A stretch of 64,000 bases of DNA from positions 1,924,029 to 1,988,028 of the forward strand of contig OZ245030.1 in the NCBI GenBank assembly GCA_965223985.1, given 5' to 3'. The DNA comes from Candidatus Poribacteria bacterium (GTDB taxonomy: Bacteria; Poribacteria; WGA-4E; PCPOR2b). The notes under the pieces were generated by a model. It saw only the letters and a program-made list of their open reading frames with translations, searched no databases and was not told the origin of the DNA. Below are positions 3,020 through 57,500 of this stretch, one piece after another. The first letter of the stretch is position 1. Every line of letters starts with the position of its first letter. The translations under genes and the position numbers were made by a program.

Positions 3020-3796
3020 ATGAAGCAAATCTTTTTTCAGATTAACAACCGATTGAAGTTAATAGTTCTTGAGTTGCAAGAATTCACACTTTTCCTCGGT
3101 CGTGTGATTCGCAGCCTATTCCGAAGACCACGATATTGGGCGGATCTCTTTGACCAGATGGATATTCTGGGTGTCGGATCGCTTGTCATTGTGCTAATCG
3201 CGGGGTGTTGCGTTGGGGCTATTATTTCAATGGAAACCTTGTTCCAACTCCAGTCATACGGTGCTCAGTCTTTCCTCGGCCGAGTAACTGGCGATTCAAT
3301 TGTCCGAGGCGCGGGGCCCGTCTTCACAGCGATGATTGTTTCCAGTCGTATTTGCCCAGCAACTGCCGCGGAGTTAGGCTCGATGCAAGTGAGTCAACAG
3401 ATTGATGCGCTCGTGACGATGGGTATTGACCCCATTCGCAAACTGATTGCGCCGCGTATCATCGCTAGTTTTTTTATATTCCCAGCCCTTACATGCGCCC
3501 ATGCCGTAGCTGCCATTCTGTCAGGTGGTTTAGTTGCTCAGTTGTCGGGGGAATTAACACTATTGCGTTTTTTAAGAGAGTCTTTGGTCGAAATTTCCTC
3601 TGGAGACGTGCTTTGGGGGTTGATGAAATCAGTTGTGTTCGGTTTGGTGGTGGTAACGCTTGCCTGCTACTCCGGCATTCGAGTTTCGGGTGGGGCAGTT
3701 GGAGTGCGAAAAGGCGCCACGAATGCAGCGGTTAACGCAATTCTGCTCATCCTTGTATTTGACTTTCTGGTGATTAGTCTGGGTCGTTCGCTCTGA
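3020..3796 (+). CDS. mlaE: MlaE-type ABC transporter permease
   Basis: ORF 2828-3796; conserved MlaE/DUF140 permease sequence begins at ATG 3020 (MKQIFFQINNRLKLIVLELQEFTLFLGRV…); multiple TM helices. Confidence 0.8.
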   Translation: MKQIFFQINNRLKLIVLELQEFTLFLGRVIRSLFRRPRYWADLFDQMDILGVGSLVIVLIAGCCVGAIISMETLFQLQSYGAQSFLGRVTGDSIVRGAGPVFTAMIVSSRICPATAAELGSMQVSQQIDALVTMGIDPIRKLIAPRIIASFFIFPALTCAHAVAAILSGGLVAQLSGELTLLRFLRESLVEISSGDVLWGLMKSVVFGLVVVTLACYSGIRVSGGAVGVRKGATNAAVNAILLILVFDFLVISLGRSL

Positions 3797-3954: not shown

Positions 3955-4713
3955 ATGATTTTACTGAAAAATATCAACTTTTCCTACGGGGATACCCAAA
4001 TCCTCAAAGATATCACATTTGATATCCCGGCTGGTGAAGTGACTGCGATTCTTGGTCCAAGTGGATCCGGAAAGACTACGCTACTTCGTATCTTAACCGG
4101 ATTGCTCAAACCTGCGAGCGGTGAAATCTGGATGAGTGGGAAGAGTTTGATGGCTTTGTCTGAATCAGAACAACAACACATTCGAAATAAAATGGCGATT
4201 GTTTTTCAGAACGGCGCGCTTTTTGATTCACTCAGTGTTTGGGAAAACATCGCGTTCCCCCTTTATGAGCGCTTTTCAATGCCTCTACTAGTAATTCGGC
4301 AGGAAGTTGAAAAACTCCTTGAAAAATTTGGTTTGCAGAACGCCGACGAATTGACAATTAATCAATGCAGCGGCGGGATGCAGATGCGGGTTGCAATTGC
4401 ACGCGCTTTTGCCTGTCATCCTGAGATTATTCTTTACGATGAACCGACCTCTGGACTCGATCCGATCGCGCGTGACCGCATCTGTGATTGTATTCAAAAG
4501 CAACAGTTCCAGCGCAATGTAACATCGGTACTCGTGACCCATCAGCTGACCACCGCGTTCCGCATTTCCAAGCGTTTCATTTGCCTCTACGATGGAGAAA
4601 TTCATTTTGACGGCACTGCTGATGAATTAACGGTATCAAAAGATCCCTATATCCAACGGTTCATCCAACCTTCGAAGCGGGTTTATCGGGCTCTCGATTC
4701 TGATCTGACCTAA
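3955..4713 (+). CDS. mlaF: MlaF-type ABC transporter ATP-binding protein
   Basis: Walker A GPSGSGKTT, ABC signature LSGGMQMRVAIARA, Walker B ILYDEPTSGLD; position between mlaE and mlaD. Confidence 0.85.
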   Translation: MILLKNINFSYGDTQILKDITFDIPAGEVTAILGPSGSGKTTLLRILTGLLKPASGEIWMSGKSLMALSESEQQHIRNKMAIVFQNGALFDSLSVWENIAFPLYERFSMPLLVIRQEVEKLLEKFGLQNADELTINQCSGGMQMRVAIARAFACHPEIILYDEPTSGLDPIARDRICDCIQKQQFQRNVTSVLVTHQLTTAFRISKRFICLYDGEIHFDGTADELTVSKDPYIQRFIQPSKRVYRALDSDLT

Positions 4714-4726: not shown

Positions 4727-6094
4727 ATGCCGAGTGCCTATTATATATTCACGGAGATGAAATTCATGCGATTACAAAGAACACAAGTCACTTGGTCTCA
4801 ATTGCGAGTGGGGATTTTTTCGGGTATCTGTCTGGTAATTATACTTTGGTTTCTGTTTTACCGGGAAAATGGACTGAGAGCCATTCGTAGCCAATTTACC
4901 GTTGAGACGATTATCGATTCTGCATCAGGGGTCAAACGGGGTACTCCCGTCCGCTTGGCTGGAATTGAAGTTGGAGAAGCGAATAAAGTTGAATTCATTC
5001 ATCAAGAGGGGTTGCATAAAGTCCGAATCCAGATGGCACTGAGCAAAAATGCAGCCGAACACCTCAGAAGCGATTCGATTGTCCAAGTAAAGTCTGCAGG
5101 GCTAACTGACAACAGGGTTATTGAGATTTCATTAGGCACCTCCGATGGTAGCCTAGTTGCAGACGGCGACACATTGTCGAGCATTGTACCGATGGAAGCA
5201 ACTGTCGTCTTGAATCAGATAATGGCGCTCAGCAACAGCATGAATAGTTTCTTGAGCAGATTCGAGAGTCTTGTCAATCAACTTCAAGTGGGTGATGGTA
5301 CATTTGCACAATTACTGAAGGATGGGAAAATCTACCAAAACCTGCACCAAGCAACTCAAGGTGTTTCCCATTTGATGTCAAATTTAAACGAGGGTCAAGG
5401 CCTCCTTCCTCAATTACTTTCCGACGGACAACTTGCTGAGAATATTACACAGAGTGCTGCTTCAACGGCAGCTTGGGGCAAACAAATTACCAATGGAGAA
5501 GGCACGTTGGGCAAGCTAAGCATGGATGCTGCACTCTTCGATCAGGCGTTAATCCTAGCAACAAAAGGAGATCGAGTATTGGAGAACCTTGAGGCTCGCT
5601 TGGAGGCGGCAATTGTTTTGACGGAGGTACTGGTTCAAAAAATATCCCACGGTGAAGGAACGGCTGCAAAGTTTGTCAACACACCGGAACTGTACAATCA
5701 AATTCACGCCTCGGCTGAAAGGATGGAGCAGTTTATAGAGCTTGCGCAGTCGGGTGAAGGAACAGTCGGTCAGTTCATGTCGGATGCGATGTTTGCCGAA
5801 CAGGTTTCAGCAATTACGGCCTCGCTCGCAACGTTGACCCAAAAACTCAATACTCCCGGAAATACGTTCGACACACTTGCAACGGGATCGGGTTTGGTGG
5901 ATAGCCTGCTTGCAACGACGGTTCATTTGGAATCCATCTTGACAAAAGTCAACAACGGAGAGGGTTCTCTGGGCAAATTGACTGATGATCAGCAGACCGC
6001 CGAAAGTCTTTCACAACTAATCGCCAATCTCAGGACACTTATTGCAGACATCCATGCAAATCCGAAGAAGTACGTTAAGCTCAGCCTTTTTTAG
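4727..6094 (+). CDS. mlaD: MlaD/MCE-family substrate-binding protein with long C-terminal coiled extension
   Basis: N-terminal TM anchor then MCE domain (…VKRGTPVRLAGIEVGEANKVEF…); third gene of mlaFED cassette; start could be ATG 4757 (MKFMRL). Confidence 0.7.
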   Translation: MPSAYYIFTEMKFMRLQRTQVTWSQLRVGIFSGICLVIILWFLFYRENGLRAIRSQFTVETIIDSASGVKRGTPVRLAGIEVGEANKVEFIHQEGLHKVRIQMALSKNAAEHLRSDSIVQVKSAGLTDNRVIEISLGTSDGSLVADGDTLSSIVPMEATVVLNQIMALSNSMNSFLSRFESLVNQLQVGDGTFAQLLKDGKIYQNLHQATQGVSHLMSNLNEGQGLLPQLLSDGQLAENITQSAASTAAWGKQITNGEGTLGKLSMDAALFDQALILATKGDRVLENLEARLEAAIVLTEVLVQKISHGEGTAAKFVNTPELYNQIHASAERMEQFIELAQSGEGTVGQFMSDAMFAEQVSAITASLATLTQKLNTPGNTFDTLATGSGLVDSLLATTVHLESILTKVNNGEGSLGKLTDDQQTAESLSQLIANLRTLIADIHANPKKYVKLSLF

Positions 6095-6174: not shown

Positions 6175-7386
6175 ATGGATCTATTTGAAAAGTGTTTCCA
6201 TTTTACCAGCGGTAAAAGTGTCCTTGGGAAAGGGACCAAAGAAGCACGAGAAGCAGGACTCTATCCTTACTTCATCCCAATCCAAGAATCAAGAGATACT
6301 GAAGTCATTATTAATGGCGAAAAAAAGGTAATGATCGGCTCCAATAATTACCTCGGTTTGACGCATCACCCGAAGGTTCTTGAAGCTGCCGCAGATGCCG
6401 CTCAGAAATATGGCTCTGGCTGCACGGGAAGTCGCTTTCTGAACGGAACACTCGATATACACATCGCGCTCGAAGAAGCGCTTGCCGAATTTGTGCATAT
6501 GGAAGCTGCGTTGGTTTTTAGTACTGGCTTTCTAGTGAACCTTGGTGTGATTGATGCAATTGTAAAACGCAAGGACATCGCATTCATTGATGCCTTGAGT
6601 CACGCGAGTATCGTCGATGCATGTTTGTTCTCTCGGGGCGAAATGGTAAGGTTTGCGCACAACGACTTAGAAGATCTCAGCCGCAGGTTGGAAATGGCGA
6701 CTTCCCAAGGAGGTAAGCTCATAGTTGTGGAAGGTATTTACAGTATGGAAGGCGATGTGGCTGATCTTCCCGGTATCGTGAAAGTTGCCCAAAAATACGA
6801 TTGCCGGTTGATGGTTGACGATGCCCACGCAGTTGGTGTTCTTGGACCAACCGGCGCAGGAAGTGCTGAACGTTTTGATGTTGAAAACGAGGTGGACCTC
6901 ATTATGGGGACATTCAGCAAGTCTTTTGCATGCATAGGAGGCTTTATCGCCGGTGAAGCAACTGTCCTCGACTACCTGAAACACCATAGTCGTAGTTTGA
7001 TCTTTAGTGCAAGCATGCCCCCGTCAGCCGTTGCAACCGTACATGCAGCGTTAGAAATCATCAAGTCCGAACCGGAACGGCGCGAGCGGCTCTGGCAAAA
7101 TACCCGAAAGATGCAGGAGGGGTTCCGATCGCTGGGATATGACATCGGTCAGTCTGATTCCCCTATTATCCCGATTCTCACCGAAGATGACACAACAGCC
7201 TTGATACTTTGGAGACGTCTACTTGACGAAGGGATTTTCACCAATCCGGTTCCAAGCGCAAGTTCTGCTGTGCCACCGGGAGGCTCCCGCCTTCGCACAA
7301 GCTATATGGCAAACCATACCGATGATCACCTCGACTTTGTACTTGACAAGTTTGCGAAACTCGGCAAAGAATTGGGGATTATCTAA
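6175..7386 (+). CDS. Alpha-oxoamine synthase family PLP enzyme, serine palmitoyltransferase-like
   Basis: ORF 6097-7386; ATG 6175 preceded by GGAGG; NYLGL motif, PLP-lysine motif GTFSKSF which matches the SPT signature GTFTKSFG better than Kbl/BioF GTL(G/S)KALG. Confidence 0.7.
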   Translation: MDLFEKCFHFTSGKSVLGKGTKEAREAGLYPYFIPIQESRDTEVIINGEKKVMIGSNNYLGLTHHPKVLEAAADAAQKYGSGCTGSRFLNGTLDIHIALEEALAEFVHMEAALVFSTGFLVNLGVIDAIVKRKDIAFIDALSHASIVDACLFSRGEMVRFAHNDLEDLSRRLEMATSQGGKLIVVEGIYSMEGDVADLPGIVKVAQKYDCRLMVDDAHAVGVLGPTGAGSAERFDVENEVDLIMGTFSKSFACIGGFIAGEATVLDYLKHHSRSLIFSASMPPSAVATVHAALEIIKSEPERRERLWQNTRKMQEGFRSLGYDIGQSDSPIIPILTEDDTTALILWRRLLDEGIFTNPVPSASSAVPPGGSRLRTSYMANHTDDHLDFVLDKFAKLGKELGII

Positions 7387-7431
7387 ATACTGAAGATTGA
7401 AAGCAATCTATCCTAGTTATCAATATTCAAC

Positions 7432-8652
7432 ATGGAAGTTGTCGTCACTCCTGTTCAGTCGAAATCGGATCTCAAGGCATTCATTAGCTTGCCATGGCAG
7501 ATATACCGTGGAGATCGAAATTGGGTACCGCTGCTGCGCAGAAATCTCAAGAATCGATTAGATTTGTCTAAGCATCCGTTTTTTGATTCCGCTGATGTAG
7601 CACTTTTCATTGCGCGTTGTGACGGACACATCGTTGGCAGCATCGCCGCAATCAACAACCATCACCATGTTGATTTTCACAAGGAGCCTGTGGGTTTTTT
7701 TGGATTCTTCGAGTGTGTTCGGCACCAGGAAGTAGCCGAAGCCTTATTTTCTCACGCTGCTGATTGGTTGAAAACCCGCAACTTGGAAATAATGCGCGGG
7801 CCCATGAGTTACTCAACGAATGAAGAGTGTGGTTTGCTCATTGATGGATTCAATCGCCCGCCTGTCATCATGATGCCGTATAATCCGCTCTATTATGTTG
7901 ATCTCATTGAGGGGTTCGGCTTCAAGAAAGCAAAAGATTTGCTCGCATACGAAATCACCGATGAAGTAGCCTTATCCGATCGCCTGAAGCATACCGTTAA
8001 TTATATCGAAAGGCGAAGAAAAATCACAACACGTCGTCTCAACATAAAACAGATTCATCAGGAAGTTCAGCGCGTGAAAGAGATCTATAACTCTGCATGG
8101 GAGCGAAACTGGGGATTCGTTCCAATGACAGATGAAGAAATCGATTACATGGCGGCGGAACTCAAACCGATTGTAGATCCTGATATTGTGCGATTCGCCG
8201 AAATTGAAGGAGAGGCAGTTGCCTTTGTCCTTTCCTTACCAGATTTCTATCAGGTGCTGAAGTATGCAAATGGACGACTATTTCCGTTTGGATTGCTCAA
8301 AATACTCTGGCATAGCGGCAAAATCTGGCCGGCTCGTGGTAAAATCGACAATATCCGCATACTAACGTTGGGTATCAAGGAAGAATATCGGCGGCAAGGG
8401 ATTGATGCGCTGCTCTACTATTATTCCTATACCGAGGGTAAGAAAAAAGGTTATCGACGGGCTGAATTATCGTGGATTTTGGAGGATAACACCCTCATGA
8501 ATCGAGCGCTGGAAAACATGGGGGCGAAAGTCTATAAACGCTATCGGATTTATGACTATCCGCTGGGATCGCCCAAGAATCCCTCTGTAGACAGCCCCAC
8601 AAAATTGGCAAATAAAAAATTTATGTCAGCAGAGTCTAAACGGGACCTCTGA
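7432..8652 (+). CDS. GNAT-fold N-acyltransferase of unknown specificity (~400 aa family, candidate bacterial ceramide/N-acyl amino acid synthase)
   Basis: 406-aa ORF with N-terminal ISLPWQIYRGDRNWVPLL motif typical of a widespread ~400-aa GNAT-like family; 45 bp downstream of SPT-like gene. Confidence 0.5.
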   Translation: MEVVVTPVQSKSDLKAFISLPWQIYRGDRNWVPLLRRNLKNRLDLSKHPFFDSADVALFIARCDGHIVGSIAAINNHHHVDFHKEPVGFFGFFECVRHQEVAEALFSHAADWLKTRNLEIMRGPMSYSTNEECGLLIDGFNRPPVIMMPYNPLYYVDLIEGFGFKKAKDLLAYEITDEVALSDRLKHTVNYIERRRKITTRRLNIKQIHQEVQRVKEIYNSAWERNWGFVPMTDEEIDYMAAELKPIVDPDIVRFAEIEGEAVAFVLSLPDFYQVLKYANGRLFPFGLLKILWHSGKIWPARGKIDNIRILTLGIKEEYRRQGIDALLYYYSYTEGKKKGYRRAELSWILEDNTLMNRALENMGAKVYKRYRIYDYPLGSPKNPSVDSPTKLANKKFMSAESKRDL

Positions 8653-11290: not shown

Positions 11291-12112
11291 CTAGGTTCTG
11301 TTGACATTTCATTGTAACCAGATAATGGTAGCAACGAGACTTAGAAACCTCATATACCGAACCGCTAACTTATCAAAACGAGCAGAGATGCGTCTATACT
11401 GCTTGATTTTGTTGATAAAACATTCGATTCAATGCCTCTCTTTATACAGATGCACATCATAAGTGCGTGAATCACGACGGTTGGCAGGTGGCGGTATCAC
11501 CGCCACCGCACTCCTTTTGGTTATCGATTCAATAAATGCCATCGCGTCGTATGATGTGTCAGCTATCACATACTCACTACTATAACCAGAAATCAACGCT
11601 TCAGCACAAGTAATGTCATGCCGTTGACCCGCCGTCAGCCTAAAACGTAGGGGATTACCTAAGCCGTCAACAGCGATGTGAATCTTGGTTGAAAATCCAC
11701 CTCGACTGCGTCCGAGCGCTTGTGAAGCTTGACCACCCCTTGTTTTCAATGCGCCCCCAGCACATGGGTGCGCTCGAATGATAGTGGTGTCAATGATGAG
11801 CCACTCCATATCGGGGTCTTGGGCAAAGTGTTGATGCAACCATTGAAAGATACCTTTATCGCACCACCGAGCGAAGCGTTTATAGACGCTGTTCCAATGA
11901 CCGTACTGTTTGGGTAACAGTCGCCATTGACTACCACTACGAGTTATCCAAAGCACCGCATCAATAAAGCGTTTTAAGCGAGTTTGCTGTCCAGTGTAGA
12001 TGTCGGGACAGGTTTTAAGGAATGCTACTATTTTTGACCATTGTGTATCGGATAAGGTAAGTGTGGACATCCCCTCATTATACACAATACACAAATGTCA
12101 ACACGCCCTAGG
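11291..12112 (-). mobile_element. IS5-family (IS427/IS1031-like) insertion sequence, ~822 bp
   Basis: Imperfect terminal inverted repeats CTAGG-nnn-TGTTGACATTT at 11291-11309 and its reverse complement at 12093-12112; single DDE transposase ORF inside. Confidence 0.7.
11429..12070 (-). CDS. IS5-family DDE transposase
   Basis: ORF 11429-12094, likely start ATG 12070 (MSTLTLSDTQWSKIVAFLK…); sequence resembles IS5/IS427-group transposases (…RIDTTIIRAH…, …YVIADTSYD…). Confidence 0.8.
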   Translation of the reverse strand: MSTLTLSDTQWSKIVAFLKTCPDIYTGQQTRLKRFIDAVLWITRSGSQWRLLPKQYGHWNSVYKRFARWCDKGIFQWLHQHFAQDPDMEWLIIDTTIIRAHPCAGGALKTRGGQASQALGRSRGGFSTKIHIAVDGLGNPLRFRLTAGQRHDITCAEALISGYSSEYVIADTSYDAMAFIESITKRSAVAVIPPPANRRDSRTYDVHLYKERH

Positions 12113-28839: not shown

Positions 28840-29856
28840 ATGCAAACGCGGAAAATAAACTCAACGGTTGTGTTCGTTGGCGTGCTACTCTTGGGCAGCG
28901 CCGCTGTGCTTATGATTGCTCAAGCACAAGCCCCTATACGTTCAACTATTGCCGTTGCTACTTCTGGAGCGGAGGGATTCGGAATCTTTATCGTGGATCC
29001 CAAGAGACCGCAAGGCGGTACAGTGCAGCTCCTAGAGGTTGAAGGGGACCCAATTCCCGGCGGATTAGAGTGGTCTCCGGACGGCACTAAGATTGCTTTC
29101 CATACCCAAGTTGGACAGAATATAGATGTCTACGTTGTCGATGGTGACGGGGACGGTCTCAAACAGCTCACCGGCCATGAGGGGGAAGATAGCTGGCCCG
29201 CTTGGCACCCCAGCGGTCAAAAACTAGCCTTCACCAGCAATCGGGATGGCAACCTTGAGATTTACACCATGACATCGGGTGGGGTAGTTATCGGAAACTT
29301 AACAAACGATCCTGCTCCGGATCAGCATCCTGCTTGGTCTCCGAACGGTCGCAACATTGCTTTTGCCACCAAGCGCGGTCGTACTATCTCTGATGTCTGG
29401 CTTATGGATTCGGCGGGAGATAACCCACACAATCTAACCAACCACAAGGGAGAAGACGTTGAACCTTCGTGGTCGTGGGACAGCCAAAAGATTGCTTTTA
29501 CCACCCGTCGGTTTGGATCTGGGCGTGCTATGACAATGGACCCTGATGGTGGTAGCTTGCTGAAGATTTCGGGACCGGACGTTGAGCGAAGAGACCCCGA
29601 GTTTTCTCCAGATGGAAAAGAAATCGCCACTGTGTGGTTTGGGGGTGGTCAGACACGCTTGGATATATATTCAAGCAATGGCAAACATGCGGATGCAGAC
29701 CAACACGGGGCGCCAGTGTGGGATATCATCGATCTCGGATTCCCGAGCCGGGGTCCAGCCTGGTTTGACCCTGATTTTGTAGTACCGTTCTCTGTTTCCT
29801 CTACGGACAAACGCCCTTTGAGCTGGGGCTGGCTAAAGAGGGCAGGGCTTGAGTAA
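28840..29856 (+). CDS. TolB-like periplasmic beta-propeller protein (PD40 repeats), paralog 1
   Basis: Signal peptide ending AQAQAP; repeated …NRDGNLEIY… / …PAWSPNG…IAF… PD40 units; conserved C-terminal tail DKRPLSWGWLK. Confidence 0.75.
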   Translation: MQTRKINSTVVFVGVLLLGSAAVLMIAQAQAPIRSTIAVATSGAEGFGIFIVDPKRPQGGTVQLLEVEGDPIPGGLEWSPDGTKIAFHTQVGQNIDVYVVDGDGDGLKQLTGHEGEDSWPAWHPSGQKLAFTSNRDGNLEIYTMTSGGVVIGNLTNDPAPDQHPAWSPNGRNIAFATKRGRTISDVWLMDSAGDNPHNLTNHKGEDVEPSWSWDSQKIAFTTRRFGSGRAMTMDPDGGSLLKISGPDVERRDPEFSPDGKEIATVWFGGGQTRLDIYSSNGKHADADQHGAPVWDIIDLGFPSRGPAWFDPDFVVPFSVSSTDKRPLSWGWLKRAGLE

Positions 29857-30005
29857 TGATTCTTCCAATTCACTCAGTCGACTTTCTGAAAAATTCTGTT
29901 GGCCCATGTCAAAAGCAAGCGGATTGGGCATAAAAAGGTGCCAAGACACTTTGGGATAGGATGTCAACGTCGAACCGATGAAAATCATCATGGGGAGGAT
30001 GCATC

Positions 30006-31025
30006 ATGCAACTCCAGAAATCGCATTTAAGATTGGCAATATCTATGGGTATACTTTTCTTGAGCAGCATTGCCGTATTGATGATTGCTCAAGCACAAGC
30101 ACCTGACCGTTCAACAATTGCTATTGCCACGGGGATAGAGGGATTTGGAATTTATCTGCTCGACCCTGATAAACCAGCAGCTCATGCAGAGAAGCTCCTC
30201 GAAATTGAAGGGGATCCCATCCCCGGCGGGTTGGAGTGGTCTCAGGATGGCACTAGGATTGCTTTCCATACCCAAGTTGGACAGAATATAGATGTCTTCG
30301 TGGTCAGTGGTGATGGGAACGGTCTCAAACAGCTCACCGACCATGAAGCGGAAGATAGCTGGCCCGCTTGGCACCCCAGCAGTCAAAAGCTGGCCTTCAC
30401 CAGCAATCGGGATGGCAACCTTGAGATTTACACCATGACATCGGGTGGGGTAGTTATCGGAAACTTAACAAACGATCCTGCTCCGGATCGGCATCCCGCT
30501 TGGTCTCCGAACGGTCGCAACATTGCTTTTGCTACCAAGCGTGGGCGGACGCTGTCAGATATCTGGCTGATGGACTCCGCGGGAGGCAACCTTAAAAATC
30601 TAACCAACCACAAGGGTGAAGATCTTACCCCCTCGTGGTCATGGGACGGTCAAACGATTGCCTTTACCACCCGTCGGTTTGGAGCTGGTCGTACAATGCG
30701 GATGGACGCCGATGGTGGTAATCTGCTGACGATTTCTGCGCGTCAAGTTCCGCGGTTAGACCCCGAATTTTCTCCGGATGGGAAAGAAATCGCCAACGTG
30801 TGGTTTGGAGGCGGTCAGACGCGTCTCCATATATGGCCAAGCGATGGGAAGCTTGCGGACGCTGACGAACACGCGGCACCGGTGTGGAAAGAAATAGATC
30901 TAGGATTCCCGAGTGCGGGACCGGCCTGGTTTGACCCTGATTTTGTGGTACCGTTCTCTGTTTCCTCTGCGGACAAACGCCCTTTGAGCTGGGGCTGGCT
31001 AAAGAGCGCCGGACTTGAGAACTAG
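30006..31025 (+). CDS. TolB-like periplasmic beta-propeller protein, paralog 2
   Basis: Very similar to paralog 1 (long identical stretches); same signal peptide and C-terminal tail. Confidence 0.75.
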   Translation: MQLQKSHLRLAISMGILFLSSIAVLMIAQAQAPDRSTIAIATGIEGFGIYLLDPDKPAAHAEKLLEIEGDPIPGGLEWSQDGTRIAFHTQVGQNIDVFVVSGDGNGLKQLTDHEAEDSWPAWHPSSQKLAFTSNRDGNLEIYTMTSGGVVIGNLTNDPAPDRHPAWSPNGRNIAFATKRGRTLSDIWLMDSAGGNLKNLTNHKGEDLTPSWSWDGQTIAFTTRRFGAGRTMRMDADGGNLLTISARQVPRLDPEFSPDGKEIANVWFGGGQTRLHIWPSDGKLADADEHAAPVWKEIDLGFPSAGPAWFDPDFVVPFSVSSADKRPLSWGWLKSAGLEN

Positions 31026-31220
31026 CAGGTGATAGATGCTGTTATTGTCCGCTGAGATAATTTGGCACGTAGATGCCATTTTACTGAGTGTGTTCACTTC
31101 TGTAGTGAATTCCTGCTTAACAATTGATGAAGAGACATAGAAACGCGGCGGTTGCCGTGAACTTTTAAATCATTCAATCCTGATTTGTGGTCAGGGTTTC
31201 GTGAAAGGAGACAAAAGACT

Positions 31221-32246
31221 ATGCAACATCCAGTAACAGTTGTACGTCTAAGCATATTGGCGAGTGTATTCCTCGTGGGTTGTTTTGCGCTAATCCTGAG
31301 TGCACATGCTCAGGCACCCAATGGTCCTACCATCGCAGTTGCTAGTTTAGGGGACGGTGGGACGCTCTGGCTCATAGATAAGGATGGAGAACAAGCGCGC
31401 GCAATACACGACATTGAGGGGGATCCGGTAGTCTTAGGGTTGTCGTGGTCCCCGGACGGTAATAAGATTGCGTTCTTTTCTGAAAAGAAGAAGGACGTAG
31501 AAAGTGATGTGTACGTGGTGGATGCCGACGGTAAGGGGCTCAGAAATCTCACAGACCGTCAAGGGTTTGATGGCTGGCCCACTTGGCACCCCAGCGGGCA
31601 AAGGCTTGCCTTCACTACCGATCGAGATGGCAACCTTGAAATTTACACGATGTCGGCTCAAGGAATCATCGGTGGCAACCTCACGAACGATGCCGTTCCT
31701 GACCAAATGCCCACTTGGTCACCAGATGGTCGTAAGATTGCCTTTGCCACTAAACGAGGGAAGACACTAGGTGACATCTGGGTGATGGACACCAGCGGAG
31801 GCAGCCTCCAGAACCTGACCGAGCATAGGGGGCAGGACATCGAACCTCGATTTGCCTTCGACTCTAAAAAGATCGCTTGGACAACACGGCGGTTTGGGGA
31901 AGGAGCAATCATGGTCATGGATGCCGATGGACAGAATCAAGTACAGATTTCCCCTAACCCTGAAAATGAAAAGCGAGATCCTGCATTTTCGCCCGACGGT
32001 AAAAAAATCATCTACGTAAGATTCGGTGGGGGTCAGGCGAATATTCAGAAACGGTCGGTAAAACAGTTTGCAAAAGGAGTGCCGAATGTATGCGGGGGTG
32101 ATTGTTTTGAACTTCCGGGGATAGGTTTCCCAACACGTTCACCGGTGTGGTTTGACCCAGATTTTGTGGTTGAGTGGGCGGTTTCTCCTGCGGACAAACG
32201 TCCAATGACATGGGGCTGGATAAAACAGTTGGGGCAGAGCAGATAA
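31221..32246 (+). CDS. TolB-like periplasmic beta-propeller protein, paralog 3 (diverged)
   Basis: ORF 31185-32246, likely start ATG 31221 after AAAGGAG; signal peptide AHAQAP; PD40 repeats; tail DKRPMTWGWIK. Confidence 0.7.
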   Translation: MQHPVTVVRLSILASVFLVGCFALILSAHAQAPNGPTIAVASLGDGGTLWLIDKDGEQARAIHDIEGDPVVLGLSWSPDGNKIAFFSEKKKDVESDVYVVDADGKGLRNLTDRQGFDGWPTWHPSGQRLAFTTDRDGNLEIYTMSAQGIIGGNLTNDAVPDQMPTWSPDGRKIAFATKRGKTLGDIWVMDTSGGSLQNLTEHRGQDIEPRFAFDSKKIAWTTRRFGEGAIMVMDADGQNQVQISPNPENEKRDPAFSPDGKKIIYVRFGGGQANIQKRSVKQFAKGVPNVCGGDCFELPGIGFPTRSPVWFDPDFVVEWAVSPADKRPMTWGWIKQLGQSR

Positions 32247-32431: not shown

Positions 32432-32878
32432 ATGCAACAATACAGACATACCCAGATTGGTTATCTCCTCATCATCTTGTATAGCGCAGTGGTAGTCTTC
32501 ATAGGCTATGTGAATGTTTTGGTGGGTTTTAACCCGTTTGCCTTAGCCGCTCTAATTGTTATGGTTTTTGTTCTAAGGCTATTCTCTAGTTTGACGGTAG
32601 CGGTCGATGCCAAGATGATTAAGATTCAATTTGGTTTGGGGGTTATTCGTAAGGTTTTTCTGCTAAAGGACGTAGAAACATACTTTGTAGTCAAGAATCC
32701 TTGGTACTACGGTTGGGGGATTAGATTCACTACAAGAGGTTGGCTATTCAATGTTTCTGGTTTCTCGGCAATCGAACTTCAGATGAAGAATGGGAAGAGG
32801 TATCGGATAGGGACGGATGAGCCCGATAATTTAGCGAATGCGCTTACCGAAGCACTGAATGATGTTCCCGTTCAGTAA
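32432..32878 (+). CDS. Small membrane protein with bacterial PH-like domain
   Basis: ORF 32342-32878, likely start 32432 after AGGAG; two TM helices then beta-rich domain. Confidence 0.45.
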   Translation: MQQYRHTQIGYLLIILYSAVVVFIGYVNVLVGFNPFALAALIVMVFVLRLFSSLTVAVDAKMIKIQFGLGVIRKVFLLKDVETYFVVKNPWYYGWGIRFTTRGWLFNVSGFSAIELQMKNGKRYRIGTDEPDNLANALTEALNDVPVQ

Positions 32879-32900
32879 CTCTGCGCATAGAGGAAGAACG

Positions 32901-33686
32901 ATGTTTATTCGTATTGTAACACACGATTCGATTGCATGTATGAGTTTAGTAGCCTTCGCTTGCATCTTCGCAACATCAGGGCATGCAGAGATTGACCCAG
33001 ATACGATTGTAGGGTTGTGGCTCCTCGACGAGGATAAAGGTAGAGAAGCTAAAGATAGCTCAGGCAATGAACTTCACGGGACGTTCACAGGGTCTCCTAA
33101 GTGGAGGGAAGGTAAGTTCGGCCGGGGCCTGGAACTCCCAGGCGGAGGCGATACGGTCAAGATTGAAGGATTTGCCCAGGACTTTCCCACCGAGGAAGTG
33201 ACAATCACATCGTGGGTGAAGGTAGAAGGGTTCAAGAATCAAGACCTTTTTAGTCTCGAACCACTTGACCCTAGTCGCGTCACAGTCCACTTTCCGTGGG
33301 ATAACCAACTTCACTGGCAGTTCAGCACTATATGGATGCATCCACCACTTCCAATTGGTGAGGAGGTTGAAGGCAAATGGCAACATTGGGCTTTCATCCA
33401 TAGTATTGCGGATAACGTAATGCTTGCATATCAGGATGGCGAGGAGGTCGGAAGATCGCAGAACTCCAAAGCGTATGCTCCACGAGCCGGAGATTTTCAC
33501 ATAGGCGGTAGACTAGGTTCTTCTTTTCAGGGTTTCGTTGACGAAGTTGGACTGTTTGAGGCTGTCCTTAGCCAAGCTGATATACAAAGCATTATGGAAA
33601 ACGGTCTTGAGGCGCGAGTCTTTGCAGTTTCGCCAGCCAGCAAGCTTGCGATCTCCTGGGGTCAAATCAAAGCACGAAAGGAATGA
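32901..33686 (+). CDS. Secreted LamG-like (concanavalin A-like/Laminin_G_3) protein, type A copy 1
   Basis: Signal peptide …ATSGHA/EIDPDT; LamG hallmark GFVDEVGLFEAVLSQADIQSIM; C-terminal tail VSPASKLAISWGQIKARKE. Confidence 0.7.
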   Translation: MFIRIVTHDSIACMSLVAFACIFATSGHAEIDPDTIVGLWLLDEDKGREAKDSSGNELHGTFTGSPKWREGKFGRGLELPGGGDTVKIEGFAQDFPTEEVTITSWVKVEGFKNQDLFSLEPLDPSRVTVHFPWDNQLHWQFSTIWMHPPLPIGEEVEGKWQHWAFIHSIADNVMLAYQDGEEVGRSQNSKAYAPRAGDFHIGGRLGSSFQGFVDEVGLFEAVLSQADIQSIMENGLEARVFAVSPASKLAISWGQIKARKE

Positions 33687-33842
33687 TCTCCTGAGGAATT
33701 TCCAGTTTCACCCGTCAAAAAGTCTATTGCCCTGCGGTTGGTTCATGTAGGTGAGGTACGCGCCGTCGAGAGAAATCGTGTGGCTCACAGAACCACAGTA
33801 GAATTTTGAAACATATCAAACTATTTATAGGAGAAAAAAACG

Positions 33843-34640
33843 ATGTTTGATCGGATTGTAACAAGATTTTCGATTGTATGTATGAGTTTAGTAGCCTTCG
33901 GGTGGATTCTCGTAACATCAGGGTATGCAGAGATCGACCCAGATACCATTAGAGGGTTGTGGCTCCTTGACGAGGGCAAAGGAAAGGATGCCAAGGATGG
34001 CTCGGACAATGAACGTCACGGGACGTTCACGGGAACTCCCAAATGGAGGGAAGGTAAATTCGGCCAGGCCGTTGAGTTTGGAGGTGCAGGCGACACCGTC
34101 AAGATTGAAGGATTTGGCATGGAATTTCCCTCGGAGGAAGTGACAATTACGTCGTGGGTGAAGTTAGAGGGGTTCAGGAATCAAGACCTTTTTAGTCTCG
34201 TGCCGCTTGAGGTTGGTAACAAGGGCCGCGTCACAGTCCACTTTCCCTGGGATAACGCTGTTCACTGGCAGTTCGGCACGCCTTTTACGGGGATTGCACC
34301 GGTTGCGCTCGACAAGGCGGTGGAAGGCAAATGGCAGCACTGGGCTTTCATTCATAGTGTTAAAGAAAACGTGTTTCTTGTGTATCAGGATGGCGAGGAA
34401 GTGCGAAGGACAGCGAATTCGCAAGCGTTTGTTCCAGGAGCCGCAGATTTTCACATAGGTGGTAGACTGGGTTCTTCTTTTGAGGGTTTCGTTGACGAAG
34501 TTGGAGTTTTTGAGGCTGTCCTTAGCCAAGCTGACATAAAAAGCATCATGGAAAATGGTCTTGAAGCGCGCGTCTTTGCTGTGTTGCCAGCCAGCAAACT
34601 TGCGACTTCCTGGGGTCGAATCAAAGTGAAAAGGGAGTAA
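33843..34640 (+). CDS. Secreted LamG-like protein, type B copy 1
   Basis: Paralog with EVGNKGRVTV variant; tail LPASKLATSWGRIKVKRE. Confidence 0.7.
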   Translation: MFDRIVTRFSIVCMSLVAFGWILVTSGYAEIDPDTIRGLWLLDEGKGKDAKDGSDNERHGTFTGTPKWREGKFGQAVEFGGAGDTVKIEGFGMEFPSEEVTITSWVKLEGFRNQDLFSLVPLEVGNKGRVTVHFPWDNAVHWQFGTPFTGIAPVALDKAVEGKWQHWAFIHSVKENVFLVYQDGEEVRRTANSQAFVPGAADFHIGGRLGSSFEGFVDEVGVFEAVLSQADIKSIMENGLEARVFAVLPASKLATSWGRIKVKRE

Positions 34641-34819
34641 CCCCGGGCGCGCCGCCGCGGGGGGAATTGTCCTATCTTTGTATTCAACACTTGTCTTTAA
34701 TCCATGTGCGACCAAACCCTTGCGAAGGTTTCAAACCTTCGCAAGGGTAAACCTCGCTGGCACACCATATCGTCTCTACACCATTGAGTGAGATTGGGAA
34801 ACATTGGAGATTTGCCGCA

Positions 34820-34940
34820 ATGAAGACGCACCATTAGTGAAGCAAAGCTGACCGATATGTAGGTCATGGAGTTCTGTAGAAACGAGTTCTTCATGTTTGA
34901 AAGCGTAGTTCCGCATGAATTTAATCAACGAACCATCTAC
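34820..34940 (+). pseudogene. 5' remnant of a PhyH-family dioxygenase gene
   Basis: ~120 nt alignable to the first 130 nt of the gene at 36810 (ATGAAGACGCACCATTAG…), with a stop at codon 6. Confidence 0.6.
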
Positions 34941-34960
34941 ATTTGTCGGAGGCAAAAACG

Positions 34961-35743
34961 ATGTTTATTCGCACTATAGCAAGATTTTCGATTGCATGTA
35001 TGAGTTTAGTAGTCTTCGCTTGCATCTTCGCAACATCAGGGCATGCAGAGATTGACCCAGATACGATTGTAGGGTTGTGGCTCCTCGACGAGGATAAAGG
35101 CAGAGAAGCTAAAGATAGCTCAGGCAATGAACTTCACGGGACGTTCACGGGATCTCCTAAGTGGAGGGAAGGTAAGTTCGGCCGGGGCTTGGAGTTCCCG
35201 GGAGGGGGCGATACTGTCAAAATTGAAGGATTTGCCCAGGACTTTCCCACGGAAGAAGTGACAATCACATCGTGGGTGAAAGTAGAGGGGTTCAAGAATC
35301 AAGACCTTTTTAGTATGGAACCGCTTGACCCTAGTCGCGTCACAGTCCACTTTCCGTGGGATGGCCACCTTCACTGGCAGTTTAGCAATACGGGTATGGC
35401 TCCAATTCTGATTGGCGAAGCGGTAAAAGGGAAATGGCAACACTGGGCTTTCATCCATAGTGTTGCGGATAACGTGATGCTCGCCTATCAGGATGGCGAG
35501 GAGGTCCGAAGAACATCGGTTTCAAATGCGTATGTTCCGCGGGCCGGAAGTTTTCACATAGGCGGCAGACTGGGTTCTTCGTTTCAGGGTTTCGCTGACG
35601 AAGTTGGCCTGTTTGAGGCTGTCCTTAGCCAAGCTGACATAAAAAGCATCATGGAAAACGGTCTCGAGGCTCGCGTTTTTGCGGTTTCGCCAGCCAGCAA
35701 ACTTGCAACTTCTTGGGGTCAAATCAAGGCAGGAAGAGAGTGA
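34961..35743 (+). CDS. Secreted LamG-like protein, type A copy 2
   Basis: Near-identical over long stretches to 32901-33686; tail VSPASKLATSWGQIKAGRE. Confidence 0.7.
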   Translation: MFIRTIARFSIACMSLVVFACIFATSGHAEIDPDTIVGLWLLDEDKGREAKDSSGNELHGTFTGSPKWREGKFGRGLEFPGGGDTVKIEGFAQDFPTEEVTITSWVKVEGFKNQDLFSMEPLDPSRVTVHFPWDGHLHWQFSNTGMAPILIGEAVKGKWQHWAFIHSVADNVMLAYQDGEEVRRTSVSNAYVPRAGSFHIGGRLGSSFQGFADEVGLFEAVLSQADIKSIMENGLEARVFAVSPASKLATSWGQIKAGRE

Positions 35744-44428: not shown

Positions 44429-47344
44429 CTAATTGACGAAGATGTCCGCCAACCTGATTTCAACCACTTTGCCGACTTTTACCAACTGCTCCATATCTAT
44501 CTTGTTTTGGTCCCCAACAATGGAAATGAGCTTGTGACGGTTTCGCAGGTGTTCTTCATGGAATTGGAGCATCAGGTCGATCTTGGATTCTTGAATCTGT
44601 TCAAATCGCCATTTTCGCGGATCAATTGGGACCTCTAAGCGTTCCCATGAACGCACCGCTCCAATAACGTCTCGGAAGCCGAGTTTGGCGGTACGATAGC
44701 GATTCAGTATGGAATGACGCGCCTCAGCGAAACGTTCAGGAGATTCAGGTAGGTTGTCAATGAGGTCAATGAAGGCTTCCACAGCTACAGGTGTTTTATC
44801 GGCTTGGCAGGCAATATACCCCCACATCGAATTTTGATCGCCTTTGCGGCGACCCGTAGCGTATCTAGCGTGTGTTGCATAAGCAAGCGCGCGGGACTCT
44901 CGCAATTCTTGGAAGACGACGCCTGCCATCCCACCGGCGAAATAGGCGTTGTAAAGTTGGAGAGCTGGATTGTCAGCTTCATTATAGTCTTCATCACCGA
45001 ATTCGATATCCACCTGCGACTGCGCCATCTCTTTGTGAAAGAAGAAGATTTCAGTCTCTTCGGGAAGACGGACTTTGAGAAAATGGTAGCGCGGGGGCGT
45101 TTGCAAAGTACCCGAGATGGGGTGGTTCTTTGTTAGGTCATCCAGCACTTCATCCAGTGGCAACGAACCCACGTAACTGATGGTGTGTTTGTAGTTCAAG
45201 AGTTCTTTAATCTCTTTGTGGAGTTCATCTACCGTCAGCCGCCGGACAGCTTCACTGGGTAGCAAACGCAAATAGCGGGAGTCTTTGCCATATCGATTGT
45301 AATGCAGAAGGGCGCGGCGTATAGCACGGTAATTTTTCTTGGCATCTTCTCGGTTAATGAGAATAATTCTGATGAGTTCCTCCAGGGTCGTTGCATCAGC
45401 AGTTGGGTGCTTCAGAAGATCTAGTAGCAATACGAGAGATGCACTGAAATTTTCGTCGAGGCCTGAAATGGTGATTGCCGTTTCGTTGTCTTCAACGTCA
45501 ATGCTGAAGTCGGTTCCCAGTTTGTACCACTCCTTTTTTAAGCCTTCGGCGCTGTATTCTGAAGCGCCGGATTTATCGAGCAGTTGCGTGGCGATGTCCA
45601 ACTTATTATTGTGGCGGCTACCGAGATCGATGGAAATCGTGAGTGAAAACAGGTCGTTGATTGGATTCTGATCGTAGTAGAGCCTGACGCCATCGTGATA
45701 GTTAGTGATTTGATAGTCTTTATCCGATACAAAGACTGGCTCAATTTCTTTAACTGACATCGCAAAGATTTGTTTGGCAAAGGCGGACTGCCTCGCAGGA
45801 TCAATCTCGATGGTGTCAATTTGTGGTTTTTCGATGGATGGGACTTCGTGCTGTTCGTCCACACGATAGCCCGCTACATAGTTGTTGCTGAAATATCGGT
45901 TGGCTACCGTGACGAGGTCCTGTTTGGTCAGTTCTTCCATACGTGCAATTTCACCGACGGCGTCATCCCAATCCTGAAAAGACAGAAAAGCATCACGCAT
46001 CATCGTGACCCGGGCGGGATTTGACTCCAATTGCGCTTTCTGGGATTTCTTAAAATCGATCACAATTCCTGGCACCAACCACGCTTCAAACTCACCCTTT
46101 TTAATCAATTCAATCTGCTCCAGAAGCAGCTGTTCAACTGCTTCGAGAGGCTGTTCTTCTTTCGGAATGCCCCACAGGTATTGCACACCATCGTCGTTAT
46201 CCATGCTAGGATACGAGCCAGCCTGCCGCACCTTCTGTGCCTGATTTAAGTTCAGGTTAATCAACCCGGCGGTCGCATTATCCAAAATCATATCAATTAG
46301 TTTCAGGGCTTCCGCGTCCTTGTGATTGCGGCTCGCCGTTCGGAATGCGAGGAGGACATACTCCTCCCCCCGATATTTGACTGTAACACGTTCAGCACCC
46401 TTCAGCGGTTCTTCATTCCACACTTTTGCTTGGGGCAGCTTTTTTGGCTGCCACCGGGAAAAATGCTCGTCAATCATTCGGATGGTTCCCTCGGCATTGA
46501 TGTCGCCGGAGATGTGAATTGCCATGTTGTTGGGCACATAGTAGGTATGGTAGAATTCGTACATCTTTTTTAGAGATGGATTCTTCAAGTGTTCGCCCGA
46601 GCCAAGAGTTGTCTGTTGTCCATAGGGGTGATTTTTATAGAGCAACTGCTTGACTGCTTCACTAATGATTCGGCGTTTGCTGTCCAACGACCGGTTCTTT
46701 TCCTCATAGACAGTTTCCAACTCGGTCTGAAAGAGGCGGAAGACGGGCTCAATGAAGCGATCGGATTCTATCATCATCCACTGATACAGCCGGTTCGCAG
46801 GCAGATCCACGGTGTAAACGGTTTCCTCCACCCAGGTATGTGCATTGACATATCGTCCGCCCATCGCTTTGTAGAGCTTGTCGAGTTCGTTGGGGATACC
46901 GTATTGCGCAGCGAGTTGAGATGCCTGATTAATTTCAGCGTAGATTTTCACACGATTCTCTGGATCAGTTTCATGGAAATGCGCTTCGTAGAGATCGGTA
47001 ATTTTGTCTAGATGCGGTTTCTCTTTTTCGTAGTCAAGGGTGCCCACATTCTGGGTTCCCTTAAAGAGCATGTGCTCCAGATAGTGAGCGATACCGGTTG
47101 CTTCAGCCGGATCATGCTTGCTGCCCGCACGCACAGAAATCTCTGCGTAGAAGCGGGGCTCTTCACGGTTTTCTGTGAGATAAACCGTCAAGCCGTTGTC
47201 CAATTGATAAATCTGGGCAGACATTAAATCGGCAGGGTTTGGATCATTGATGCGTCTATAGCCAGCCCAGCTAGTAGATACAGTCAAGCCGAGAACAAAA
47301 ACTGAAACAAATATTTTGTACAAAACCTCTTTTTTCCGATACAT
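44429..47344 (-). CDS. Large secreted M16 family zinc peptidase (two-repeat PqqL-like insulinase)
   Basis: ORF 44429-47479; likely start ATG 47344 (MYRKKEVLYKIFVSVFVLGL signal peptide), which removes the overlap with the upstream gene; zinc motif HYLEHMLFKG. Confidence 0.8.
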   Translation of the reverse strand: MYRKKEVLYKIFVSVFVLGLTVSTSWAGYRRINDPNPADLMSAQIYQLDNGLTVYLTENREEPRFYAEISVRAGSKHDPAEATGIAHYLEHMLFKGTQNVGTLDYEKEKPHLDKITDLYEAHFHETDPENRVKIYAEINQASQLAAQYGIPNELDKLYKAMGGRYVNAHTWVEETVYTVDLPANRLYQWMMIESDRFIEPVFRLFQTELETVYEEKNRSLDSKRRIISEAVKQLLYKNHPYGQQTTLGSGEHLKNPSLKKMYEFYHTYYVPNNMAIHISGDINAEGTIRMIDEHFSRWQPKKLPQAKVWNEEPLKGAERVTVKYRGEEYVLLAFRTASRNHKDAEALKLIDMILDNATAGLINLNLNQAQKVRQAGSYPSMDNDDGVQYLWGIPKEEQPLEAVEQLLLEQIELIKKGEFEAWLVPGIVIDFKKSQKAQLESNPARVTMMRDAFLSFQDWDDAVGEIARMEELTKQDLVTVANRYFSNNYVAGYRVDEQHEVPSIEKPQIDTIEIDPARQSAFAKQIFAMSVKEIEPVFVSDKDYQITNYHDGVRLYYDQNPINDLFSLTISIDLGSRHNNKLDIATQLLDKSGASEYSAEGLKKEWYKLGTDFSIDVEDNETAITISGLDENFSASLVLLLDLLKHPTADATTLEELIRIILINREDAKKNYRAIRRALLHYNRYGKDSRYLRLLPSEAVRRLTVDELHKEIKELLNYKHTISYVGSLPLDEVLDDLTKNHPISGTLQTPPRYHFLKVRLPEETEIFFFHKEMAQSQVDIEFGDEDYNEADNPALQLYNAYFAGGMAGVVFQELRESRALAYATHARYATGRRKGDQNSMWGYIACQADKTPVAVEAFIDLIDNLPESPERFAEARHSILNRYRTAKLGFRDVIGAVRSWERLEVPIDPRKWRFEQIQESKIDLMLQFHEEHLRNRHKLISIVGDQNKIDMEQLVKVGKVVEIRLADIFVN

Positions 47345-47409
47345 TTTTTGGGTTCCCTTCTTGAGAATGTTTTGAAAATCTACAAATCGCAAATGATTCT
47401 CGAATCTTC

Positions 47410-48498
47410 CTAATAAACCCCCACTACGACTGTCTCCTGTAGGTCGGATAGCAACCGGAGATTCTGAACACCGCCCCAAGGGTATTGCTCAATCGGTTCA
47501 GCCCGTTCGGCTTCGTCTCTTTCTAAAAAGCGCGGCATAAAAAACTCTAGGGTCAACGTCGTCAGCATGACTCGACCGGTTTCACCATAATCGACAGGCT
47601 CTTCAGGGTTGTTGCGGTTGACCAGTTCAATCACAGCGCGAGGTTGTGGGGGATAGTAGATAATCGCATAATTGTCAGCGGGGTCAAACGGTTTGCAGCA
47701 CGCCAGACCCATCAGCGTGTTCCCGTAAGTCGGGACGAAATCAACCCCCGGCACCAATTCTTCACGGGCAAAGCGGTGAAACTGGGCATCCATTTCCGTC
47801 CCACCGCAAAAGATGCCTGTAATACCAATCTTTTGCAACGAAATCTTTTCGCACAGCGCCTCAAGAAGTTTGGGAGTTGTAAAAAGACACTGGATATTTT
47901 CATGGGCTCTTAAGATGTTCAATGCCTGATCGATGACATGGTCCTTGTAGGCGTCCAATTCTTGATGTTTCCCGTACTTAATCAATCTATTCACCCATCG
48001 CGGATCTAAATCCACCATAAAACAGATGCCACCTCGGTGTTGAGCTAAATACTCAACGGCAAGGCGCAATCGTCTCGGTCCGGTGGGGCCCAACATCAAC
48101 CAATCGCCCCCGTGTGGAAAGCTTTCATCGGAGAGGGTTTGACTAAAGAACTCGTAATCAATCTGAAAATCACGAACGTTGACGCGGGATTTGGGGACGC
48201 CGGTCGAACCGCCCGTTTCAAACACATACACCGGTTCCTTCGCGTACGCTTTTGGCACCCAACGTCGTACCGGTCCACCACGCAGCCATTCGTCCTGAAA
48301 ATGTCCCAGAATTTTTAGGTCATCATAGCCGCCAATTTCTTTGCGTGGGTCAAATTCGAGGTTCCTCGCAAATTCTAACCAGAACGGGGCGCCGGTCTCT
48401 GGACTGAAATGCCATTGAACAATTTCACGAACGTGGTCATCGAGTTGGCGGCGTGCCACTGCGATTTTTTGAGATAGAGAAGTGTTTAAGATTTCCAT
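47410..48498 (-). CDS. Adenylate-forming enzyme, PaaK/F390-synthetase-like (hypothetical)
   Basis: 362 aa; AMP-binding P-loop variant FETGGSTGVPK. Confidence 0.45.
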   Translation of the reverse strand: MEILNTSLSQKIAVARRQLDDHVREIVQWHFSPETGAPFWLEFARNLEFDPRKEIGGYDDLKILGHFQDEWLRGGPVRRWVPKAYAKEPVYVFETGGSTGVPKSRVNVRDFQIDYEFFSQTLSDESFPHGGDWLMLGPTGPRRLRLAVEYLAQHRGGICFMVDLDPRWVNRLIKYGKHQELDAYKDHVIDQALNILRAHENIQCLFTTPKLLEALCEKISLQKIGITGIFCGGTEMDAQFHRFAREELVPGVDFVPTYGNTLMGLACCKPFDPADNYAIIYYPPQPRAVIELVNRNNPEEPVDYGETGRVMLTTLTLEFFMPRFLERDEAERAEPIEQYPWGGVQNLRLLSDLQETVVVGVY

Positions 48499-48788
48499 AC
48501 TATCCTTTCTGTGGTTAGTCGCCTTTGGGTGAGATGACCTCGATAAGACGGCAAAACTCCTTACTAAAAAGGCGGGTACAATCCTCTGTTAAGGCATTCT
48601 TAATAATCTCACTGCTTGGAAGTTTCTATTGACACCTTATCGTTCTGTGTGCTAGACTTGAAGTTGCCAGTTGTTGGTCTATATCTTATCAAAGGGGAGG
48701 ATTTATTCGCCGTGTCCTCATCCACTTCACATTTGGGAATCAGCCAGCGATTATGGTGAACATCTGCAACAGACTCGAAGGTGCAAAA

Positions 48789-49445: not shown

Positions 49446-49541
49446 GACCGCGTCTCCAACCCAAGCAGTGCTTGCCCCGATATTGAATTGCAGGAGTACA
49501 CTTTCAGATGCTTTTGCTAATTCTGAGACGAAGATGAACAC

Positions 49542-53409: not shown

Positions 53410-53439
53410 CCATCAGATAGCATCGTCGTAACTCAACAT

Positions 53440-54738: not shown

Positions 54739-55046
54739 TATGCTTTTGCCCGTTTAATATCTCGACCTTGCGAAGATTTGTCCCCGCCGTAGAGTAGCAG
54801 CACAATAGTATTTCCTACTTGTCCAAAATAGACGCGATAGCCTGGACCAAAGTGGCAACGGAGTTCAAACACACCACCGCCAACTGAATCGCAGTTACTC
54901 AAATTACCAGATTCGATGCGGTCTATACCGGCTTGAATTCTAGTTCGTGTCTTTAGATCTGGAATTGATTCAAACCATTGGGTAAAGGGCTCTTGACCGT
55001 TTGGGGTACGGTAGATTTCTAGTTCTCTTGGTTGTACAACGGGCAT
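54708..55046 (-). CDS. Type II toxin, RelE/ParE superfamily (HigB-like addiction-module killer)
   Basis: 112 aa; sequence pattern of the addiction-module killer family (…EIYRTPNGQEPFTQWFESI…VGGGVFELRCHFGPGYRVYF…). Confidence 0.6.
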   Translation of the reverse strand: MPVVQPRELEIYRTPNGQEPFTQWFESIPDLKTRTRIQAGIDRIESGNLSNCDSVGGGVFELRCHFGPGYRVYFGQVGNTIVLLLYGGDKSSQGRDIKRAKAYWQEYKEDSK

Positions 55047-57451: not shown

Positions 57452-57500
57452 AGTTACGATTTTTCACTCCCCAAACAGATTGAACAGCAAAACTTTGTTT

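Follow-up and report, generated by a model that had tools for sequence, protein, structure and literature searches.

The stretch of DNA analysed here (64,000 nucleotides of contig OZ245030.1 from Candidatus Poribacteria, hereafter the window) carries on its + strand two neighbouring genes, 45 bp apart, that are candidates for a role in ceramide synthesis. The first, spt (6175-7386), encodes a predicted pyridoxal 5'-phosphate (PLP)-dependent alpha-oxoamine synthase (AOS) of 403 aa of the serine palmitoyltransferase (SPT) type, and the second, bcerS (7432-8652), encodes a predicted tandem-GNAT N-acyltransferase of 406 aa that was assigned to the YghO/CC_1154 family. The gene order on the + strand was found to be M16 peptidase, mlaE, mlaF, mlaD, AOS and GNAT. 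An earlier note on this DNA had correctly placed both genes, at 6175 and 7432, downstream of Mla genes, but had given the order of the latter as F-E-D when it is E-F-D. The AOS gene starts with an ATG that has GGGAGG in front of it. In the list of open reading frames (ORFs) this frame extends to a TTG at 6097, while gene callers on a near-identical public contig give the protein of 403 aa. This public contig of 3.0 Mb (ENA ERZ25071132, ctg820222) has gene calls identical to those used here, with its proteins being 99-100% identical to those of the window.

Comparison to profiles and solved structures supports the 6175-7386 product as a putative SPT-type AOS. A fold-type I PLP domain was found to span the whole protein (Pfam Aminotran_1_2, residues 50-392, E 1.2e-62). 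The top NCBIfam model was SerpalmtaseCFB, an equivalog for SPT of the Bacteroidota type, with 507 bits, while lower scores were obtained for the models of Betaproteobacteria SPT (417), a BioF/Kbl-related subfamily (389), BioF (384) and Kbl (375). Among entries of the PDB, the SPTs of Sphingobacterium multivorum (401 bits) and Sphingomonas (309 bits) scored ahead of Kbl (258 bits), a cysteate-C-fatty acyltransferase (235 bits) and BioF (223 bits), placing the best SPT match more than 140 bits above Kbl. The crystallised S. multivorum SPT (PDB 3A2B, 8GUH) is the closest solved structure and is approximately 48% identical to the AOS over its full length, compared to 35% for Kbl and 35% for BioF, which have the alpha-oxoamine synthase fold and PLP chemistry in common with it. 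The two SPT-type proteins share the same catalytic residues and the GTFSKS motif, but the window AOS comes from another phylum, scores below the cutoff of the CFB model and possesses a two-residue insertion before its PPGG segment.

Phylogenetic placement, which the earlier note had named as a means of checking its reading, was performed with a neighbour-joining (NJ) tree of 64 sequences. These included 57 AOS genes of other loci (one from the locus L002 described below and the others from loci of the GNAT family; almost all of the 57 adjoin the GNAT gene), and references comprising the SPT of S. multivorum, a Sphingomonas Spt, the SPT of the Escherichia coli yghO cluster, a Streptomyces homologue, and Kbl and BioF of E. 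coli MG1655. The window AOS was found inside a clade with the S. multivorum, Sphingomonas and E. coli SPTs, falling within the span of characterised SPTs, with Kbl and BioF outside this clade in 84 of 100 bootstraps. The alignment showed that the catalytic set H159, D231, H234, T262, K265 and R390 (numbered as in the S. paucimobilis enzyme) is conserved in full. This set covers the PLP lysine, the stacking histidine, the aspartate and histidine at the pyridine and O3', and the carboxylate-binding arginine. The motif around the PLP lysine is GTFSKSF, of which GTFSKS is common to the S. multivorum, Sphingomonas and E. coli SPTs, and every member of the Spt clade has S-K-S at this position, whereas E. 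coli Kbl has G-K-A (GTLGKA) and E. coli BioF has G-K-G (TFGKG). The argument made previously from this motif, that it is an SPT signature and not that of Kbl or BioF, thus holds. The insertion mentioned above is specific to the window AOS in comparison to its relatives and is located in the loop that precedes the conserved PPGG…R segment, where residues ~356-372 (window 7240-7290) read NPVPSASSAVPPGG in the window SPT and NPVVSPAVPPGG in relatives.

The product of the second gene was less readily identified by domain searches. Only a C-terminal Acetyltransf_1 domain was detected with Pfam (residues 214-364, E 2.1e-8), no assignment was obtained from NCBIfam profile comparison, and a sequence search of the PDB returned nothing significant. 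An AlphaFold model of the protein, made with 44 homologues, had a predicted local distance difference test (pLDDT) score of 88 and a predicted template modelling (pTM) score of 0.86, and was composed of two GNAT halves (residues 1-176 and 198-377), followed by a lineage-specific tail of the last ~25 residues that was modelled with low confidence as disordered. The top PDB matches to this model in Foldseek were tandem GNATs, such as glucosamine N-acetyltransferase, MshD and Eis (E ~1e-13, template modelling score ~0.55).

Named homologues were reached by translated search of annotated plasmid records. The best annotated homologue was E. coli YghO, which aligned end to end with 36% identity (E 6e-81), and an N-acetyltransferase of a Sphingomonas parapaucimobilis replicon aligned over its full length with 33% identity (E 8e-72). 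In E. coli, yghO (ECD_02850) has been described as the orthologue of CC_1154, the N-acyltransferase on which dihydroceramide formation depends in Caulobacter, and the SPT encoded beside it was reported to make 3-oxo-sphinganine when expressed with its acyl carrier protein (ACP) partners (PMC9386255). CC_1154 (CCNA_01212) is itself required for ceramide synthesis and adjoins lptG2 and lptF2 in the Caulobacter sphingolipid locus (PMC11324152; 2026 preprint). This layout is matched by that of the Sphingomonas locus, which encodes an NAD(P)H-binding protein, ACP, AOS, an ATP-binding protein, LptF, LptG, a desaturase and the N-acetyltransferase. The neighbours of E. coli yghO in the record that was matched (NZ_MG591698.1, locus L089, 1349-9128) were found to be lptF and lptG paralogues, SPT (an AOS), ACP, an epimerase and a fatty acyl-AMP ligase. 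This record is labelled as a plasmid of 353 kb but also carries the glc operon and may therefore be chromosomal DNA, and two other "plasmid" matches are 4.8-4.9 Mb long. These sequence comparisons make the 7432-8652 product a homologue of the YghO/CC_1154 family, referred to below as the bacterial ceramide synthase (bCerS) family. Where relatives of the GNAT protein with 67-71% identity carry a source name, it is Candidatus Poribacteria, and from this the organism would be Poribacteria-like.

The GNAT protein belongs to a large family, for which over 7,800 matches were obtained at E ≤ 1e-5, typically 370-380 aa long. A scan using one genome per species yielded 80 GNAT-family loci of other genomes from over a dozen phyla, among them Gemmatimonadota, Zixibacteria, Ignavibacteria, Spirochaetes, Acidobacteria, Binatia, Myxococcota (including the cultured Archangium gephyra), Bacteriovoracaceae and Bacteroidota. 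An SPT-like AOS was identified no more than 3 kb from the GNAT gene at 55 of these 80 loci, and thus the pairing of the two genes exceeds chance. The distance is no more than 400 bp at 50 of the 55, and at 49 the AOS gene precedes the GNAT gene in the same orientation. Furthermore, a CerR-like reductase of the 3-beta-HSD/epimerase type was found within 5 kb of the GNAT gene at 50 of the 80 loci, with both AOS and epimerase being present at 46; this triad was also seen in the gene tables of metagenomic contigs. The triad corresponds to the cluster of Spt, bCerS and CerR, which served as the marker for sphingolipid producers in a Black Sea study. These loci also place proteins of many phyla whose sole annotation is "GNAT family N-acetyltransferase" or "hypothetical" in the YghO/bCerS family.

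On a Streptomyces plasmid (L088, 6769-11295), AOS, GNAT, epimerase and a condensation-domain protein are encoded in a single overlapping operon, which suggests that in actinomycetes a core of the ceramide type may be part of a secondary-metabolite pathway. At another locus (L006, 7606-9917), at which no AOS was found, two tandem GNAT genes lie beside a CerR-like epimerase, with the first copy broken by an apparent frameshift (129 aa and the start of a 638-aa call).

It is likely that the two genes of the window constitute the cytoplasmic core of a bacterial ceramide pathway, namely Spt and bCerS. This agrees with the earlier note, in which the pair was proposed as a candidate ceramide module and the GNAT protein as its ceramide synthase. 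Neither of the two outcomes that the note had set as refuting it was obtained: the AOS groups away from Kbl and BioF, and the GNAT protein is a full-length homologue of the bCerS family. The best studied counterpart is the pathway of Caulobacter crescentus (Spt, CC_1162; bCerS or CerS, CC_1154; CerR, CC_1164), in the model of which Spt and bCerS are cytoplasmic and N-acylation of the keto base precedes reduction. No signal peptide was recognisable in the sequence of the AOS or of the GNAT protein, which fits this location, and both are predicted to be cytoplasmic as in Caulobacter.

By analogy, the 6175-7386 product would be a soluble PLP enzyme for the condensation of L-serine and a long-chain acyl thioester, yielding 3-ketodihydrosphingosine. 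The thioester would probably be acyl-CoA, as no gene for a dedicated ACP or acyl-ACP synthetase is located nearby. N-acylation of this keto base by the tandem-GNAT enzyme, with a second acyl-CoA as donor, would follow and give an oxidised (3-keto) dihydroceramide. The final step to dihydroceramide would fall to a CerR-type reductase, the gene for which presumably lies elsewhere in the genome. The analysis shows homology, fold, and conservation of both the catalytic residues and the gene pair; the order of the reactions is taken from Caulobacter, and we infer the substrates and the existence of the reductase.

A number of observations weigh against this reading. The AOS falls below all of the NCBIfam trusted cutoffs for SPT (507 bits against 640 for CFB, 417 against 500 for Betaproteobacteria and 341 against 670 for Alphaproteobacteria), these equivalogs being clade-specific; an SPT model is nonetheless its best NCBIfam match. 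The phylogeny is of the simple NJ type, has only two outgroup sequences and includes no HemA, CqsA or SulA. The amino-acid substrate of the AOS is not readable from sequence, and relatives of SPT that use cysteate, glycine or alanine exist. For the GNAT protein, identity to experimentally studied bCerS orthologues is only 33-36%, and homology to CC_1154 was established through the E. coli and Sphingomonas orthologues rather than directly. In addition, an adjacent AOS is missing at 25 of the 80 loci, such that members of this family may act in other contexts too.

The remaining points concern genes that were sought but not found. A CerR-like epimerase was not detected in the window, either by tblastn with four CerR-like queries or among the Pfam matches of the other ORFs, and no convincing homologue of an ACP, an acyl-AMP ligase or an acyl-ACP synthetase was present there. 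The same genes were also missing within ±9-10 kb of the GNAT gene at four other loci of the Poribacteria type. The ketosphinganine reductase and ACP partners that the earlier note had looked to were consequently not recovered at any of these five sites. LptF2 and LptG2, which are not part of the synthesis itself, likewise had no convincing homologue in the window and were not found near the GNAT gene at the four other loci. The sole related signal in the window, an AMP-binding match at 47410-48498, stayed below threshold (27.2 bits, cutoff 29.9). Sphingolipid genes can be unclustered, as described for Bacteroidota in the Black Sea study.

The neighbourhood of the pair differs from that of its known counterparts. 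In contrast to Caulobacter, genes for CerR, LptF2/G2, a dedicated ACP (AcpR) and an acyl-ACP synthetase (AasR) are absent from it, and the pair instead directly follows mlaE-F-D. The yghO cluster of E. coli BL21 (ECD_02850-02854) similarly encodes a YghO protein beside an SPT, but includes the complete proteobacterial set of ACP, ligase, reductase and Lpt paralogues, with a divergent yghO, whereas the window has the two core genes in tandem.

The three genes upstream of spt encode an ABC permease similar to MlaE (3020-3796; Pfam MlaE E 1.2e-57; raw ORF beginning at 2828, with the call of 3020-3796 and 258 aa taken from the near-identical public contig), an ABC ATPase similar to MlaF (3955-4713; ABC_tran E 2.3e-38; MlaF the best NCBIfam model with 196 bits, cutoff 441) and a long MlaD/MCE protein of 455 aa (4727-6094; Pfam MlaD E 2.9e-12, residues 59-135). 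All three proteins are below the NCBIfam equivalog cutoffs. The MlaD protein was found to consist of an N-terminal membrane anchor, the MCE domain and a helical C-terminal region of ~300 aa, with a weak Helical_needle match on the near-identical protein of the public contig. Permease, ATPase and MCE-domain protein are thus encoded together as an Mla-type set, similar to MlaFEDB of Proteobacteria, with the differences being the length of MlaD, its long helical C-terminal region and the absence of an adjacent gene for MlaB, MlaC or MlaA. The interval from the end of mlaD to the start of spt is 80 bp and has no terminator-like site, but the scan of the locus for promoters and terminators found no more sites than in shuffled sequence. 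The mlaE-F-D genes are probably co-transcribed.

This arrangement raises the question of whether mlaE-mlaF-mlaD-spt-bcerS is one functional unit, in which an MCE transporter with a long helical MlaD would carry (keto)ceramide from the inner to the outer membrane and replace LptF2G2 of Caulobacter. All five genes share a strand and are separated by 14-160 bp, and sphingolipid loci of Alpha- and Gammaproteobacteria carry transporter genes of their own, with the routes used in other phyla being acknowledged as open (2026 preprint). A second Poribacteria-type genome (L002) retains the gene order mlaE-mlaF-mlaD-spt-bcerS of the window with 67-72% protein identity. However, MlaE and MlaD homologues near an AOS-GNAT pair were identified at only two of 86 loci, those of the window lineage and of L002, which corresponds to two of five Poribacteria-type loci and none of the 80 other loci. 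L093, closely related to L002 (82-86% nucleotide identity), has retained spt-bcerS together with the flanks on both sides, but mlaEFD is missing there. Comparison of L002 (5645-8547) to L093 (7544-7758) showed the whole mlaE-F-D block, situated between a methyltransferase gene and spt, to be present in the former and absent from the latter. Two more Poribacteria-type loci have the order M16-M16-GNAT with neither AOS nor Mla genes, and Mla systems are general phospholipid transporters.

A conserved functional linkage of Mla to the spt-bcerS pair was consequently not found, and a single unit of this kind appears unlikely. Slightly less probable again is the proposal that one Poribacteria lineage holds its ceramide genes in an operon with an MCE/Mla-type transporter of unusually long helical MlaD, which would serve in place of Lpt paralogues for export of sphingolipid to the outer membrane. 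The membrane-lipid theme that had been suggested from the adjacency of the Mla genes stands as far as the adjacency in the window is concerned, while as a functional theme it is weakly supported, lineage-restricted and lost in L093. If such export were true, it would mean that bacteria have solved the export of sphingolipid a second time, independently, and would bear on the question of alternative export routes raised in the 2026 preprint.

A quite improbable alternative concerns the lipid that is made, which could be a related but different amino lipid, either a cysteate-derived sulfonolipid of the capnine type or one built on a 1-deoxy base from alanine or glycine, with the GNAT protein N-acylating that base. 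The solved cysteate-C-fatty acyltransferase is a clear homologue of the AOS, conserved catalytic residues do not define the choice of substrate, and the two-residue insertion ahead of PPGG is not shared with relatives. Set against this, SPT scores far above the cysteate enzyme (401 versus 235 bits), the AOS sits in the tree among proteins that have SPTs of characterised biochemistry on either side, and the window shows no gene for a cysteate synthase. The sulfonolipid variant is unlikely on these scores. Identity of the AOS with housekeeping Kbl or BioF (for threonine breakdown or biotin synthesis), with the GNAT protein an unrelated acetyltransferase next door, was rejected as highly improbable on scores, tree and motif, since although the Kbl and BioF models match strongly (375-389 bits) and the GNAT protein has just its weak Pfam match and no NCBIfam assignment, the SPT models and structures outscore them, both lie outside the AOS clade and have other lysine motifs, the tdh or bio genes of their usual contexts do not occur near the AOS, and the GNAT protein is a YghO/CC_1154 homologue whose pairing with an AOS recurs across phyla.

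As a likely Spt and bCerS, the pair is an ordinary further case of a system already known, here from bacteria that have received little study, by which a Poribacteria-like lineage joins the bacteria that carry genes for ceramide synthesis. New biology could lie only in the adjacency of the Mla/MCE genes, and support for a functional link is weak. In the literature that could be searched, no paper was found linking Poribacteria to serine palmitoyltransferase, and judging by title and abstract, none of the ten papers listed as mentioning both Poribacteria and sphingolipids addresses Poribacterial ceramide genes. Candidatus Poribacteria are best known as symbionts of sponges, which is of relevance here because sphingolipids are host-signalling lipids in other symbioses.

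Upstream of the mla genes lies a gene for an M16 peptidase with a lipoprotein-like N-terminus (416-2674, + strand; matches to Peptidase_M16 and M16_C). Its N-terminal sequence contains …LTSILIAC, and a C-terminal extension is weakly similar to LolA (E 0.001, below cutoff). A pair of M16 genes was found upstream of the GNAT gene at all five Poribacteria-type loci, even at those without spt and mla. Approximately 2.8 kb downstream of the GNAT gene is a transposase gene on the - strand (DUF4096 and DDE_Tnp_1, 11429-12094), and the gene order past this point is not common to the other Poribacteria-type loci.

Further along the window, three paralogous PD40 beta-propeller proteins are encoded at 28840-32246, and after them, at 32859-35743, come genes for three or more paralogous Laminin_G_3 (concanavalin-like) proteins; Laminin_G_3 genes were also identified near the GNAT gene at loci L092 and L094. 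The region 44429-50186 includes a second, fused M16 peptidase of 1016 aa, the ORF with the weak AMP-binding match described above and a CDP-alcohol phosphatidyltransferase (49542-50186), which could be an enzyme of ordinary phospholipid synthesis or a head-group enzyme. Finally, genes on the - strand at 52081-63994 encode an AAA_15/AAA_21 ATPase, a TPR protein, a Hypoth_Ymh protein, an Eco57I/MmeI-type methylase (824 aa) and an SNF2-type helicase (854 aa), and this region is a probable defence island.

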